Below, piece after piece: positions 4,090-13,268 of a DNA stretch of 64,000 bases. Below the pieces are notes generated by a model. It saw only the letters and a program-made list of their open reading frames with translations. It made no database searches and was not told the origin of the DNA. The DNA lies in NCBI GenBank assembly GCA_963764165.1, contig CAVXRD010000002.1, positions 1,728,001 through 1,792,000 of the forward strand. Reading direction: 5' to 3'. The translations under genes were made by a program, and so were the position numbers. Every line of letters begins with the position of its first letter. Within the stretch, counting starts at the first letter, position 1. Origin of the DNA: an uncultured Verrucomicrobiae bacterium. GTDB taxonomy: Bacteria > Verrucomicrobiota > Verrucomicrobiia > Limisphaerales > Palsa-1400.

Positions 4090-5217
4090 TTACAAAGGTA
4101 GGGACGCCTCGCCGAGGCGTCCGGTTGCGTGTGTGTTCGCCCGCAGGTTGCGCATAATTGACGCCTCACCCCGGACGCCTCGGCGAGGCGTCCCTACCTT
4201 AATTTGCTGCTGCTGTTCTTCCTGTTGAATCATGATTTCGCCCGTGATGTTCGTGAAATCCTGGAAGATGTAAGCGTTGAAAGCCGCCTCGCCAATGGCG
4301 TTGAGCTTGCTTTGAAATTGATCGAGATAGGTGTGCAGACCGAGATCGAAAATTTCCTCGATGGTGCTGAATTGCAATTCGGCTTCCAACCGGCCTGCGA
4401 GTTTTTCGGCGTCGTTGCAAAATCTCCCGCTCGGCACGCCAGATATTTGGCGCAAAGCGCCGTTCAATTCCGCCACGCAAAAACGCGCCGACCGCGGGAA
4501 ATCCTCGTTGAAAAGCAAGAATTCCGCAACGTGCCTGGGATGAACATCCGCGCCGTGAATGGATTTGTATGCGTCCCACGCGCTGCACGAGCGCAACACC
4601 GCGGACCACCCCAGCGCCTCCGCCTGGCTCACGCTTTCCGGCAATCCTCGCTCCGGCAGGCTTTGATAGCGGACGTCAAGTATGCGGGACGTTTTGTCCG
4701 CCCGCTCAAGATATTGGCCGGCCATCGAAAACCACCAGCCTTCATTTCGCAAAATGGTGGCCCGGCCCAATCCGACCAGCAGCAATGAAGCGGATTTGAT
4801 TTGCTGAAAAAATTCGCTCGGGCTTTGCCGCCAGACTTTCCGCGCCTCATTCGAGCGAACGAAAAGATAGAGGCGGTTTAATTCCTCCCAGAATTCGATG
4901 GAAATCTGGTCGCGCACCATGCGGGCATTTTCGCGCGCCTGGCAGACGGAGGAGAAAATCGAATTCGCATTCTCCGGCTGGAAGACGAGAAATTCCGTCA
5001 CGGCATGGCCGGTCGCATTCTTGTGCAGCTCAAGGAACTGCTTTTCGTCACCCGTGCTCAGCAAAACAGGCATCCAGTATTGGGTCAGGCGCTCATCGTC
5101 CAGGCTGCGCATGTCCAGGATGAGTTGGAGATTCACATCGACGATGCGCGCGATGTTTTCGGCGCGCTCGATGTAGCGCGACATCCAGTAAAGGCAGTTG
5201 GCGACGCGGCTAAGCAT
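4090..5217 (-). CDS. Alpha-E domain protein (DUF403-like)
   Basis: MLSRVANCLYWMSRYIERAENIAR, ARENAR, GQYLERAD and FPRS motifs; sits directly downstream of the CP-ATP-grasp gene. The last ~36 codons run through a REP doublet. Confidence 0.9.
   Translation of the reverse strand: MLSRVANCLYWMSRYIERAENIARIVDVNLQLILDMRSLDDERLTQYWMPVLLSTGDEKQFLELHKNATGHAVTEFLVFQPENANSIFSSVCQARENARMVRDQISIEFWEELNRLYLFVRSNEARKVWRQSPSEFFQQIKSASLLLVGLGRATILRNEGWWFSMAGQYLERADKTSRILDVRYQSLPERGLPESVSQAEALGWSAVLRSCSAWDAYKSIHGADVHPRHVAEFLLFNEDFPRSARFCVAELNGALRQISGVPSGRFCNDAEKLAGRLEAELQFSTIEEIFDLGLHTYLDQFQSKLNAIGEAAFNAYIFQDFTNITGEIMIQQEEQQQQIKVGTPRRGVRGEASIMRNLRANTHATGRLGEASLPL
4095..4200. repeat. GTAG-REP doublet (REPIN-like), family A
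   Basis: aaggTAGGGACGCCTCGCCGAGGCGTCCgg ... ccGGACGCCTCGGCGAGGCGTCCCTACCtt: two inverted palindromic arms with a GTAG foot. Confidence 0.9.
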
Positions 5218-8047: not shown

Positions 8048-10936
8048 GTGAACACTATTCGAGGAACTCGTGCCGTGCTTTCCCTTGCGGCGATTTTATT
8101 CATCACCATTGCGCCCGCGCGCGCGGCGGATTCGCCGCCCCGCGAGAAACTGCTGCTGGATTTTGGGTGGAAATTTCACCTTGGCGATGACTGGGGCAAG
8201 AGCGAACGCCTCGACAAGGCGGGCGTGAATCCCGGCCCGGCTGGGCGCTCGTTTAACGACGCCCGGTGGCGCACTGTCAACCTGCCGCACGACTGGGTTC
8301 CCGAGCTTCCATTCGACCAGCACGCTGCCACGGACCACGGTTTCAAACCTGTCGGGCCGGGCTTTCCCTCGAATAGCATCGCGTGGTACCGCCGGACATT
8401 TTCGCTGCCCGCCGAGGACAAGGGCCGCCGCCTGATGTTGGAATTCGACGGCGTTTATCGCAATGCGCGCATTTACGTGAATGGCTATTTCCTCGGCCAT
8501 CATGAGAGCGGCTACATGGGATTCCGCTATGACATCACCGATTTGGCGCGATTCGGCAGTGACAACACTATTTCCGTCCGGGTGGATGCTTCGCAATTTG
8601 AAGGATGGTTTTATGAGGGCGCGGGAATTTACCGGCACGTCTGGCTCACCAAGACCAGCCCGCTGCACGTCGCGCCGGACGGAACTTTTGTTTACAGCCA
8701 GTTTCCGAAGAACATTCCCGAGGGCGCCGCGCTGATTCACGTCGAGACCAGCCTGCAAAACGACCAGGACGCCGGCCAGTCCGCCGCCGTCGAATGCGAA
8801 ATTCTCGATCCTGCCGGAAAAGCCGTGGCCCATTTTCAACAATCAGTGCCGGTCGAAGCGTGTTCCACTAAGACCCTGACGCAACTCGCGCCCGTCCAAT
8901 CCCCCGCGCTCTGGTCGCCTGAAACTCCGAACCTCTACAAGCTTATCACCAAGGTTTCGGTTGACAGTAAGGAAGTGGATCGCACGGAAACAGAATTCGG
9001 CATTCGCACCCTGGAATTCGATGCCAATCGCGGCTTTCTCTTGAACGGAAAATTCTGCGAGATCAAAGGCACCTGCAATCACCAGGACCACGCTGGCGTC
9101 GGATCCGCGCTGCCGGATCGATTGCAATTTTTCCGTGTGAGCCGGTTGAAGGATATGGGTGATAATGGCATCCGCACCTCGCACAACGCGCCGACGCCGG
9201 AGCTGCTGGACGCGTGCGACCATCTCGGCATGATGGTCATGGACGAAAATCGCCTGCTCGGCAGCGACGCGCAAAATTTGGATTACCTCGCCGCGCAAAT
9301 CCGGCGCGACCGCAATCATCCGAGCGTCATCATTTGGTCGCTTTTCAATGAGGAAGACACGCAAACCAGCCCCACCGCGCGAAACATCGCCGCCACCATG
9401 CAGAGGGTCGTCCATGAGTTGGACCCGACGCGCCTCTGCACCGCGGCTGGAAATGTCGGCAATGTTTATCAGGGCGTGAACAGCGTCCTGGACGTGCGCG
9501 GCTGGAATTATTATCCGGACTCCGTCGATGGCTACCATCGCGACCATCCGAACCAGCCGGAAATCGGCACCGAGCAGGCCAGCGCCCTGAGCACGCGCGG
9601 CATTTACGCCAACGACAAAACGCGCGGCTACATGAGCGCCTATGACACCAACGCGCCGCCGTGGGCCACCACCTCCGAGCATTGGTGGAAGATTTTTGCG
9701 GCGCGCCCGTGGCTCTCAGGCGGATTCGTATGGACGGGTTTCGACTATCGCGGCGAGCCGACGCCTTACACCTGGCCGTGCATCAATTCGCATTTCGGAG
9801 TGCTGGACACCTGCGGATTCGCCAAGGATAATTTCTACTATTATCAGGCGTGGTGGAGCGACCGCGTCGTGCTCCATATCTTGCCGCATTGGAATTGGGC
9901 TGGCAAGGAAGGGCAGGATATTGACGTGCGCTGCTACAGCAATTGCGAGGAGGTTGAAATGTTCCTGAACGGCCAGAGCCTTGGCCGCCAGACGATGTCC
10001 ACCAATTCGCACCTCAAATGGAATGTCAAATACACGCCCGGAACGCTGCTGGCGAAGGGATACAAGAATGGCCAGGTCGTCGCGGAGGACAAAGTCGAAA
10101 CCACCGGGGCTCCCGTCGCTGTCAAATTAACCGCGGACCGCACAACGATCGACGCAAACGGCGAAGACCTCTCCATTATCACGGTCGCAGTGACGGACGC
10201 CGAAGGCCGGATAGTGCCGCTGGCCAGCAATGAAATTCAATTCACGCTGCAAGGAAACCTCAAAGATCCAGCCATCTCGCCCGGAAAAATCCTCGGCGTC
10301 GGCAATGGCGACCCGAGCTGCCACGAGCCGGATGTGTATGTCCCGAGTCAGCCGAGCCATTCAGTGGGATTGCACGACTGGCGCTACAAACGCGGGCCGC
10401 ATTCCGAAGCCATGAAGGAAACCACCGAGAATTTCGATATCGGCGATTGGGTTTCGGTGGACACCAGCCGCGAGACCGGCCCTCTAAGTCCGAATACGGA
10501 CGCTGTGTTCCGCACCACGTTCGATGCCACTCCCGCGATGTTGAGCGCAACGGGCGTCAATCTGAATTTCGGCATGATCGATGACGAGGGACTGGTTTAT
10601 GTCAACGGCCACAAGGTCGGCGAATCGCACAATTGGGAGGAGCAGCCATCTTTTGCGGTCGGAAAATATCTGCACGAAGGTGTCAATACTATCGCCGTCA
10701 GCGTGCAAAATCACGAGGGCTCAGGCGGCGTCAACAAAGGCGTCTCGCTGGAAATCCTGGACCCGCCTAGGCCAACGGTGTGGAAGCGCAGCGTCTTCAA
10801 CGGCCTTGCCCAAGTTATTGTGCAATCCAGCAAGGTGCCGGGATTATTGTCACTCAACGCGACTTCGGATGGGCTGAAAACGGGGGGGCTGCTAATTACA
10901 GCAGCCAGTGCGACACCACGCCCAAGCGCGCCATGA
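8048..10936 (+). CDS. Glycoside hydrolase family 2 (beta-galactosidase-like), secreted
   Basis: LPHDW, LEFDGVY, WFYEGAGIYRHVWL, FGIR, GTCNHQDHAGVG, IRTSHN, RDRNHPSVIIWSLFNEE and WTGFDYRGEP motifs. Start set at GTG 8048, ahead of a signal peptide; the 7130 start in the ORF track overlaps the ThuA gene. Confidence 0.92.
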   Translation: MNTIRGTRAVLSLAAILFITIAPARAADSPPREKLLLDFGWKFHLGDDWGKSERLDKAGVNPGPAGRSFNDARWRTVNLPHDWVPELPFDQHAATDHGFKPVGPGFPSNSIAWYRRTFSLPAEDKGRRLMLEFDGVYRNARIYVNGYFLGHHESGYMGFRYDITDLARFGSDNTISVRVDASQFEGWFYEGAGIYRHVWLTKTSPLHVAPDGTFVYSQFPKNIPEGAALIHVETSLQNDQDAGQSAAVECEILDPAGKAVAHFQQSVPVEACSTKTLTQLAPVQSPALWSPETPNLYKLITKVSVDSKEVDRTETEFGIRTLEFDANRGFLLNGKFCEIKGTCNHQDHAGVGSALPDRLQFFRVSRLKDMGDNGIRTSHNAPTPELLDACDHLGMMVMDENRLLGSDAQNLDYLAAQIRRDRNHPSVIIWSLFNEEDTQTSPTARNIAATMQRVVHELDPTRLCTAAGNVGNVYQGVNSVLDVRGWNYYPDSVDGYHRDHPNQPEIGTEQASALSTRGIYANDKTRGYMSAYDTNAPPWATTSEHWWKIFAARPWLSGGFVWTGFDYRGEPTPYTWPCINSHFGVLDTCGFAKDNFYYYQAWWSDRVVLHILPHWNWAGKEGQDIDVRCYSNCEEVEMFLNGQSLGRQTMSTNSHLKWNVKYTPGTLLAKGYKNGQVVAEDKVETTGAPVAVKLTADRTTIDANGEDLSIITVAVTDAEGRIVPLASNEIQFTLQGNLKDPAISPGKILGVGNGDPSCHEPDVYVPSQPSHSVGLHDWRYKRGPHSEAMKETTENFDIGDWVSVDTSRETGPLSPNTDAVFRTTFDATPAMLSATGVNLNFGMIDDEGLVYVNGHKVGESHNWEEQPSFAVGKYLHEGVNTIAVSVQNHEGSGGVNKGVSLEILDPPRPTVWKRSVFNGLAQVIVQSSKVPGLLSLNATSDGLKTGGLLITAASATPRPSAP

Positions 10937-10938
10937 GT

Positions 10939-11042
10939 TAAAGGTAGGGACGCCTCGCCGAGGCGTCCGGTTGCGCGTGAATAATGCAAGGGGTCCTCGC
11001 ATAAAGAGCGCCTCACCCCGGACGCCTCGGCGAGGCGTCCCT
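10939..11042. repeat. GTAG-REP doublet, family A; right arm interrupted by IS1111-type element (remainder at 12478-12486)
   Basis: Left arm taaaggtagggacgcctcgccgaggcgtcc. Right arm ggacgcctcggcgaggcgtccCT stops at 11042 and continues as CTaccttta at 12478-12486. Confidence 0.92.
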
Positions 11043-11119
11043 GCTATGAATATTGTCAAGTGACTAAACGGGTTCTACGTCATTTTCTTTTTTTGTTTAA
11101 ATGTTTTGATCTTATTTCG

Positions 11120-11310
11120 GAGCGTTTCCTCTTCTGGGTTCGACGGAATGCTTCCGTCGTCCAACCTGCTATCCGCACTTGTTTTTCACAGTGCCATATG
11201 ACGTTTTCGTGTCGGAAGAGGAACGAGCGCGCCCAATCTACCTTTCGGGTTCAGTTCAACTGACCCAAGGGACGGGCGGGCGCGCGCCGTTCCAAAATCT
11301 AATTTTGGGT
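11120..11310 (-). ncRNA. Putative bridge RNA / seekRNA of the IS1111-type element
   Basis: On the minus strand: 5' hairpin (11292-11308); target-binding internal loop with guides CGUCCCU and AAAGGUAG; donor-binding loop with AUAGCAG and a partial ACGUCAUAU match, closed by stems 11126-11134/11215-11223. The RNA ends are estimated. Confidence 0.8.
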
Positions 11311-11350
11311 CTTCATTTTAAATGCTGTCTTTGGTCTTCCTTTCCCCGGC

Positions 11351-12430
11351 TCAGGCCAGGTGCAGCACGGCGGCGGTGGCCCGCCCGGTTTCCATCCGCC
11401 AAATGTCGATGGCCAGCTTGCGCGCGATGGCCACGATGGCTTTCTTGCGCGCGCCCCGGTTTTGGGTTTGGCCCAGCACCTCCCGCCATCGCACCACCGG
11501 CCCGTAGCTGGGCTGGTAGCGAATGACTCGCCATGCCAGTTCAATCAGCAGCCGCCGCAATCGGGGATTGCCGTGCTTGGTGATGGAGCCCGAGATGCTG
11601 TGGCTGCCGCTGGCCTGCACTCCCGGACACAGGCCCGTCAAGCTGGCGACCTGGCGGCGATTGGCGAACCGGTTCCAGTCGAAGACTTCGCGGCGCAGCG
11701 TTTCGCTGGTCAGCAGTCCGACTCCTTTGGGCTGGGGCTTGGCCTGGCTTTGGATCTTGATGGTCACTTCTTGCAGCAGCTTGTCGGCGCCGGCTGCCAG
11801 CGCGCGCAGGATTTCCAAAATGGAGGACAGCCAGGCGGGCAGTTTGGCTTTGTGCTTCACCCATGCCCCCTCCTTCCACCATTGCCCGCTGACCCGGTGG
11901 CCATTGTAAAGCAAGAGGCTGCGTCCTTGGGCCTCATGGGTTTGCCGGTCCTTTTGCAGCTGCTCGCGCAGGCGGGTTTGGGCCCGGACTTGTTCCTGCT
12001 CGGGGGTGGGCACGGTGATGACGGCCAGGGCCTTGCGGTTGCCCTGCACATAGCGGTCCAGCCGCTGAACCATGGCCAGGGCGTCGGTCTTGTCAGTCTT
12101 TACCCCGCGGCCCAACTCATCCCAGTTCTGGGGGCGGACAACGATGTTCTTGACGCCCATTTTCAGCAGCGCTCGATGCAGGGCGTAACCGAAGGCCCCG
12201 GCTTCGTAGCAACTATGCACTTCCCCGGCCAGAGTCAGTTGCTTGGCGGCGAACTTCAGGAAGTCCTCCGGTGTCATTTTCTGGGCCGGCTGAGGCGTGG
12301 CGTCATCGATCTGGCGCACGACTCGGTAACTGTCCGCGTGCACATCCACGCCCAGTTTTATCCGGGTGTATTTGCACGGTGTTTGTGTTTTATTGTTCGC
12401 GTGGGTATTGGTAACGGTGTTCTTTTTCAT
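11351..12430 (-). CDS. IS110/IS1111 family transposase (DEDD RuvC-like recombinase)
   Basis: GVDVH, CYEAG and KTDKTDA (D-E-D-D); C-terminal domain with GVGLLTS, GLCPGVQASG (catalytic Ser) and ITKHGNPRLRRLLIELAW, ending KKAIVAIARKL. Confidence 0.95.
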   Translation of the reverse strand: MKKNTVTNTHANNKTQTPCKYTRIKLGVDVHADSYRVVRQIDDATPQPAQKMTPEDFLKFAAKQLTLAGEVHSCYEAGAFGYALHRALLKMGVKNIVVRPQNWDELGRGVKTDKTDALAMVQRLDRYVQGNRKALAVITVPTPEQEQVRAQTRLREQLQKDRQTHEAQGRSLLLYNGHRVSGQWWKEGAWVKHKAKLPAWLSSILEILRALAAGADKLLQEVTIKIQSQAKPQPKGVGLLTSETLRREVFDWNRFANRRQVASLTGLCPGVQASGSHSISGSITKHGNPRLRRLLIELAWRVIRYQPSYGPVVRWREVLGQTQNRGARKKAIVAIARKLAIDIWRMETGRATAAVLHLA

Positions 12431-12491
12431 ACCTTGGTGTAGCACCCGTTGTGCTCACCTGCCAATACCCATGCCATCTACCTTTATCGCC

Positions 12492-13028
12492 CTAGTCCAG
12501 CACTCGGTAGTAGTAACTTGCCGCGCAAAAACCGCCGTCGGGGAATAACGCGAAATTCGGAACATCGCCCACCCGGACCCAGCCGAGTTTTTCGTAAAGC
12601 CGCGCGCCGTCGCTTCCCGTCACTGTGTCAAGTGTGAGCAGCGTCCGACCGCATTCGCGCGCGGTTTGCTCGGCCGCGCGCATCAGGGCCGCGCCCAATC
12701 CGCGCCGCCGCGCCCGGCGATGGACGAGCATTTTCATAATTTCGGCGCGGTGCTGCTGGTTCTCCGGGCTGGCCAGGCCAAGTTGCACTGTTCCACAAAT
12801 TCCCTGTTCGTCCTCAGCTACAAAAAGTATGCGCTCGCCGGACACGACGCCGCTCGCGACTTTTCGCCAAAAGTCGATGGCCCTTTCTCGTGAAACCGGG
12901 TTCATGAAATGCACGCTCGCGCCGCCCTGCACGCAGTCGACAAGAACGTCCGCCAACTGGAGAAGGTGGCGCTCCTCAACAGCATCCAATTTGCGCGGAA
13001 CCAATGAGCATGGAGACGCATCTGACAC
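12492..13028 (-). CDS. GNAT family N-acetyltransferase
   Basis: GASVHF, GTVQL, NQQHRAEIMKMLVHRRARRRGLG and LTLDT...LYEKLGW motifs; start GTG 13028 is an estimate. Confidence 0.88.
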   Translation of the reverse strand: MSDASPCSLVPRKLDAVEERHLLQLADVLVDCVQGGASVHFMNPVSRERAIDFWRKVASGVVSGERILFVAEDEQGICGTVQLGLASPENQQHRAEIMKMLVHRRARRRGLGAALMRAAEQTARECGRTLLTLDTVTGSDGARLYEKLGWVRVGDVPNFALFPDGGFCAASYYYRVLD

Positions 13029-13100
13029 GACGGCGAGATACAACCATGCCGGCCTGCGCGTCAATTTCAAATCGACGCTCATCCGGAATCACAAATATTA

Positions 13101-13189
13101 AACAGGAGGAAGACCGAGAGCGCAGAGAAAAATGCCCAATTCGCCAAACAATCATTTTTGGCCTCCGCGCCCTCGGTCTTTCTCCTGTT
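13101..13189. repeat. Long imperfect inverted repeat (family D)
   Basis: aacaggaggaagaccgagagcgcagag versus the reverse complement of 13163-13189: 24/27 match. Confidence 0.7.
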
Positions 13190-13268
13190 CAAATTCTTAA
13201 TGGATGAACTTCGCTGCATTTATCGCATTGGCAAACGTCGCCTCGCAAGTTACAAAAAGGGGGCTTAA

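Follow-up and report, generated by a model that had tools for sequence, protein, structure and literature searches.

The question raised by this locus was whether a structured loop in the non-coding end of an insertion sequence acts as the guide with which the element selects its insertion site. The window analysed is a stretch of 64,000 nt; coordinates throughout are positions within it, and the strand is given for each feature. The IS110-family element occupies 11043-12479 (1,437 bp counting one CT core) and is single-copy in the 7.0-Mb genome, in which no further or non-autonomous copies were found. Its transposase (359 aa, 11351-12430, minus strand) scored above the cut-offs of PF01548, PF02371 and NF033542, the last at 166.8 bits against a cut-off of 140. 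The DEDD residues (D29, E76, D113 and D116) were invariant in 41/41 relatives and S274 was kept in 40 of the 41. The predicted protein has a RuvC-like DEDD domain and a Tnp domain with a putative catalytic serine, the combination that defines the IS110 family. The gene is flanked within the element by a non-coding stretch of 308 nt downstream and 49 nt upstream. An Rfam search of 10900-12600 gave no score near the gathering threshold, and in a search of sequencing runs none of the four matches listed (shares below 0.1) was an RNA run holding the element. A second, distant IS110-family transposase (∼30% over 112 aa) is located at ∼192600-194600 of G000:C1.

The element is inserted within the tail of the second member of an inverted pair of REP-like repeats (10940-11042, 21-nt cores at 10948-10968 and 11020-11040). 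In transposase orientation the CT core of the right end lies at 11041-11042 and that of the left end at 12478-12479 (both plus strand); the displaced REP tail ACCTTT, forming the right target flank, follows at 12480-12485 (plus strand). A paralogous REP pair that lacks the element, at 4102-4193, continues CCCTACCTT and so reads through across one CT. These boundaries are consistent with recombination at the core, without terminal inverted repeats and with duplication limited to the core, as in other IS110 elements. When 30 relatives were searched for an element-free locus, the gene and REP matches were separate and no continuous empty allele was found; the empty-site evidence therefore rests on the paralogous REPs. 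The genome contains 335 such REP ends, of which one is occupied by the element, and the commonest 6-nt tail (51/335) is the one matched by the 3′ guide described below. The 13-mer target occurs 57 times in the genome against 0.21 expected; a site that matches all 9 nt of the 5′ guide and is followed by ACC is absent from the genome. The host's ∼335 REP ends would offer intergenic landing sites. The exact 21-nt REP core occurs eight times in the window (4102, 4173, 6895, 10948, 11020, 28751, 42525 and 42575). An unrelated pair of 30-nt inverted repeats, whose core occurs four times in the genome, is found at 13098-13192 between an acetyltransferase gene and the next gene.

The candidate target-binding loop was assigned to 11227-11285 (minus strand) from the sequence, the fold, a 49-sequence consensus and stem conservation. 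A preliminary description of this DNA had proposed an outer stem, 11227-11234/11278-11285, around two guides for opposite strands of the insertion site, and the stem is present at these positions with the letters given. CGUCCCU (11274-11268) is identical to the left flank plus core (11036-11042), and AAAGGUAG (11245-11238) is the reverse complement of core plus right flank (12478-12485), both as had been read. The inner hairpin is also present, but its proposed 9/10 split was replaced by an 8-bp stem that carries a bulged A and a loop of 3 nt. The 5′ target guide has a 9-nt register including the core (11268-11276, minus strand) and thus extends 7 nt beyond the core; 7 of its nucleotides match the REP-side flank and core, and the outer two mismatch the host REP. 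The 3′ target guide (11238-11245, minus strand) matches at 8/8 positions and is followed by the target-loop handshake dinucleotide AU (11236-11237, minus strand), which agrees with the opening 2 nt of the element's left end. The outer stem is extendable by six pairs, GGAACG/CGUUCC (11293-11288/11225-11220); stem conservation supports GGAACG (11288-11293, minus strand) as the 5′ partner that lengthens it.

Folding of 11100-11350, the check that had been suggested, gave z = −3.95, with 0/200 shuffles as stable. Part of the two guides paired with each other in the single-sequence MFE, and both guides were left open in the consensus fold of 49 sequences. The named stems were 91.7% paired in these 49 sequences, against 35-53% for slid controls, and 23/34 stem pairs showed changes on both sides.

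Guides and insertion flanks were then compared among relatives. Loci were taken from genome contigs (4), from 55 of the order's 401 genomes (30 loci, with a further 20 regions) and from at least 120 metagenome stretches; the last were fetched with a left-end pattern, so that donor-side conservation is partly built in. Members of the clade derive from Limisphaerales-related genomes and from soil or peat metagenome contigs. Of the 174 loci gathered, including the metagenome stretches, 69 gave both loops by pattern, with the flanks unused; most of the others appeared to be contigs ending inside the element. L006 (a duplicate of L001) and L035 (without a flank) were left out, and the 3′ guides of L052 and L054 were re-parsed. 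Counts were made on one element per guide set, with core columns excluded and the window's own element included.

The 5′ guide agreed with the reverse complement of the right flank (transposase orientation) at 296/423 positions over 47 pairs, where 10,000 permutations gave a mean of 146.8 and a maximum of 185. The match outward from the core was 0.98, 1.00, 0.98, 0.85, 0.83, 0.62 and 0.51, then chance. The 3′ guide agreed with the left flank at 170/294 positions over 42 pairs (permutation mean 102.9, maximum 130), with 0.93, 0.88, 0.71, 0.52 and 0.43 outward from the core (positions 4 and 5 to be compared with 0.35 and 0.26), then chance. Controls with the wrong flank did not exceed chance (50/280 and 53/294). 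Within the closest subclade alone the counts were 189/261 against 109.8 permuted and 118/210 against 76.3. Disjoint sister pairs were drawn from a tree of 41 transposases, 46-74% identical to that of the window, elements without a recognised full protein being excluded. The 5′ guide fitted its own flank better than the swapped flank in 14/18 pairs (1 reversed, 2 ties, 1 with the same guide); for the proximal three positions of the 3′ guide this held in 7/18 (1 reversed, 1 tie, 9 with the same guide). In multi-copy relatives the three proximal bases are constant and the sequence varies further out.

The guides therefore change with the insertion flanks, and homologs with other targets carry other loop sequences, as the preliminary description had expected of a guide. 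This pattern argues for a target loop with two opposite-strand guides that covary with the insertion site, one of the traits by which bridge RNAs are recognised. For matches as short as 7 and 8 nt in a GC-rich region, coincidence might be entertained, as might a hairpin resembling a terminator behind the transposase gene. Both matches arose together in only 6/20,000 dinucleotide shuffles of the 308-nt right end, with either strand allowed, none of the 10,000 permutations reached the observed covariation, and no terminator-like site was found on the minus strand; this reading is refuted by the covariation tests, and its probability is negligible. It is also very improbable that the protein recognises the REP hairpin and that the RNA match is secondary or one of two requirements. 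The site does lie at the base of a palindromic REP, and for ISPpu10 the target stem-loop is described as an added determinant in the portion of the literature consulted, but guides that fit their own flanks are found in relatives whose flanks are unrelated, and recognition by the protein could not by itself account for this. A structural gate in addition to the guides is conceivable. The preferred reading is that the loop is, almost certainly, the target-binding module of a bridge RNA, and that this RNA is encoded by the right end of an IS110-family element whose layout is of the IS1111 type.

The two guides had been proposed to specify a 13-bp target. Both matches are present, but strict 13-bp specificity was rejected because the signal in sister pairs was weak at the three outermost positions of the 3′ guide (n = 17: 7 own, 2 swapped, 4 ties, 4 the same). 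Across relatives the 3′ guide was obeyed strongly in the core and for 3 nt past it, and weakly for 2 more. The enforced target would be about 5 + 2 + 3 nt, with a weaker reach to 7 + 2 + 5. L082, L108 and L111 sit in the same REP end, or in a near-identical one, and differ in their outer guide bases, which suggests that mismatch is tolerated at these outer positions. The 5′ target guides of L008, L052, L057, L101 and L106 end in CA rather than CU, the second core base being mismatched.

A donor-binding multiloop was assigned to 11123-11225 (minus strand), closed by 11225-11215 with 11134-11123. Its 5′ donor guide, GUCAU(AU) (11196-11202, minus strand), fits the donor flank at the left end, one position being a G-U wobble, and has variable core positions, which are often mismatched in relatives; the guide becomes GUUUU in 3/3 elements with a different left end. 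The 3′ donor guide, AUAGCAG (11166-11172, minus strand), repeats exactly the terminal 7 nt of the right end, core included. This identity held in 49/49 elements, four of which had changed both together; the search pattern admitted two variants, and only the four-element switch is informative. Guides to the joined ends in a predicted donor loop are a further trait of bridge RNAs. The 3′ donor guide is followed by the donor-loop handshake dinucleotide GU (11164-11165, minus strand), and the AU and GU that follow the two 3′ guides are the wild-type handshake values reported for IS621 in the parts of that work used here. In the window's element one handshake pair is predicted before strand exchange and three after it. 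The number of pairs rises on exchange in 43/43 relatives, a count to be read with the kinship of these elements, which are not independent, and with a donor end common by descent and by the fetch pattern. The handshake dinucleotides thus appear to favour the exchanged state, as in bridge RNAs. Covariation of the handshake with the target was considered and dropped, as the donor-loop handshake does not track the target position by position.

Two unusual donor loops were observed. At L020:1273-1394 the target loop is intact with matching flanks and most of the donor loop is deleted; this locus encodes either a natural target-only RNA or a decayed copy. At L001:2770-2890, in one of the two copies of that genome, the 3′ donor guide and closing strand are tandemly duplicated, which may be an assembly error.

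The two loops share a hexamer, CGUUCC (11220-11225, minus strand), that can pair upstream in the target loop or downstream in the donor loop. Pairing of 11225-11220 with 11293-11288 was intact in 99.7% of cells, and the alternative, with 11129-11123 in the donor stem, in 97.4% over an 11-pair helix. Both pairings were kept through concerted changes in several lineages. The forced alternative folds were 1.3 kcal/mol apart in the window's element and within 2 kcal/mol in 32/49; with the other partner blocked, the hexamer formed at least five pairs upstream in 48/49 and downstream in 41/49. In this clade the hexamer can thus close the target loop or the donor loop, and never both. It is conceivable, though doubtful, that the RNA is for this reason a switch, each molecule serving as target or donor module, or that its processing into target-only and donor-only RNAs is set by the pairing, and that insertion versus excision is controlled in this way. 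A more economical interpretation is that a closed stem is needed in both RNA forms, target-only and full-length. A literature search for alternative folds of bridge RNAs returned nothing on point; it was made at title level and is not proof of novelty. If true, an either/or helix would account for target and donor loops working in separate RNA molecules, and would matter for the engineering of split bridge RNAs.

The bridge-RNA reading is drawn from the ends and CT core, the intact DEDD and serine transposase, the guide covariation, the donor match and the handshake pattern. The reaction itself is modelled on IS621 and seekRNA work. The RNA would be transcribed with or after the transposase and would bind it, and the element would leave as a circle with its ends joined at one core. 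Each guide, 5′ and 3′, would pair with a different strand of a REP end, and the donor loop would hold the circle junction. The element would be inserted by serine-linked cleavage together with strand exchange at the core, with duplication limited to the core, and the increase from one handshake pair to three on exchange would bias the reaction toward insertion. RNA binding, circle formation, serine-linked exchange and insertion bias are described in the sections drawn on from PMC11208160, PMC11208158 and PMC13626964. Equally compatible is a copy-out or direct-transfer mechanism of the kind described for CazIS110-1 in the part of that study used.

In a variant of this reading, rather than a denial of it, the target loop acts mainly as a separate processed seekRNA, the ends are recognised by the protein at sub-terminal repeats and the donor loop is accessory. 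For IS1111-type elements short RNAs of 70-100 nt are given as the main species in the sections consulted of PMC11187229, and target-loop-only RNA made up 90.4% of transcripts for CazIS110-1 in the portion of that report used. Here the target loop alone folds into a closed 74-nt hairpin, and L020 retains it without most of the donor loop. The donor loop is nevertheless conserved through compensatory changes, its guides and the ends vary together, and excision and integration of CazIS110-1 needed the full-length RNA according to the same portion; this variant is judged unlikely, and a full bridge RNA with both loops is preferred.

The arrangement of left guide then right guide around a shared core had been likened to IS621. 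On the CT strand the topology is as claimed; relative to the transposase the likeness fails, in that the RNA lies downstream and the top-strand match comes first. Top-strand match first is the order of IS1111-type seekRNAs, and it is reversed in the IS110 type (PMC11187229, as far as its text was used). The window's element has two features of the IS1111 type, a long downstream non-coding region and a top-strand match 5′ of the bottom-strand match. The narrow IS110 group, IS621-like with a left-end RNA and the bottom-strand match first, was rejected since the RNA is in the right end and the order is reversed. The layout is called IS1111-type and clade membership is left aside, because the transposase is closer to ISRel9, ISSso6 and ISEc45 (75-88 bits) than to ISKpn4 (37 bits), a comparison with five references.

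Likeness to IS621 includes target and donor loops, a 9-nt 5′ guide with the core, a short 3′ guide (PMC11208160; PMC11208158; PMC13626964, in the sections used), a CT core, AU/GU handshake rising from one to three pairs, a REP target and DEDD plus serine. S274 aligns with the IS621 serine loop, although the two transposases are weakly similar (E = 0.016). The RNA of IS621 lies upstream of its transposase, whereas here it lies downstream, the CT core is on the strand opposite to the transposase and the donor loop is a multiloop. The seekRNA elements ISEc11, ISKpn4, ISPa11 and ISPst6 (Siddiquee 2024, PMC11187229, in the sections consulted) share with the window's element a long downstream non-coding region, the top-strand match 5′ of the bottom-strand match and terminal extensions of 7 and 3 nt, and ISPa11 also targets REPs. 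Near-perfect sub-terminal repeats of 11-13 bp with extensions of 7 and 3 nt are a criterion for IS1111, and the repeats here are imperfect (11/15). The closest named transposase among the five references is that of ISRel9 (Rhizobium; L183; 88 bits), and the closest plasmid-borne one that of an IS110 element of Cupriavidus necator N-1 pBB2 (L185; 150 bits). By eye, both of these proteobacterial plasmid elements carry an equivalent pair of guides in the downstream region, with an AG core and an AU handshake that fit the respective flanks; they differ from the window's element in ∼28-36% identity over the aligned part and in their targets. No paper naming ISRel9 with IS110 in its main text was found, and ISRel9 is in a supplementary table of PMC11208160.

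Bridge RNAs are predicted in most catalogued IS110 and IS1111 elements according to the part of PMC11208160 used. The system is therefore of an already known kind and the element a further member; Supplementary Table 5 of that paper, which gives the RNA location per element, may list relatives of this clade already. No paper combining IS110, Verrucomicrobi- and bridge RNA was found. The clade provides a natural reprogramming series of ∼40 guide sets, from which guide lengths and mismatch tolerance can be estimated for a system with IS1111 layout, and indicates that the IS621 handshake rule holds in a distant, inverted layout.

The right sub-terminal inverted repeat (11046-11060, plus strand) lies 3 nt from the core and has an outward TTGACA on the minus strand; the left repeat (12458-12472, minus strand), which it matches at 11/15 positions, lies 7 nt from the end counting the core. 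The modal match in 57 loci was likewise 11/15 (range 5-13). The offsets of 7 and 3 in the window's element are those given for IS1111 elements. A circular intermediate with abutted ends is a trait of the IS110 family, and joined ends were seen in one relative. L035 is a closed 1,702-bp contig with a 127-bp terminal repeat, in which the ends are joined at one core with the junction near 1230; it represents a circle or a tandem array, which could look alike. The right end of L035 is ∼250 nt longer than that of the window's element. A junction promoter created by circularisation is a criterion for the IS1111 group; by eye, the end TTGACA has no consensus −10 box at a distance of 17 nt when the ends are joined, and a promoter scan of the linear element found none.

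ISPpu9 and ISPpu10 of Pseudomonas putida (PMC12288879; bioRxiv 10.64898/2026.03.19.712850) insert into REPs at an AG dinucleotide and have a structured 5′ region able to repress transposase translation. They belong to the IS110 group without sub-terminal repeats, ISPpu9 forms circles without a junction promoter, and its downstream small RNA is dispensable and not a guide, all within the sections of these two sources that were used. In the window's element a predicted hairpin (12402-12471, minus strand) pairs the left end with the beginning of the transposase gene and encloses the ribosome site and start codon. It probably damps transposase translation, and pairing between the left end and the first codons was found at 9/10 pairs or better in 29/60 loci.
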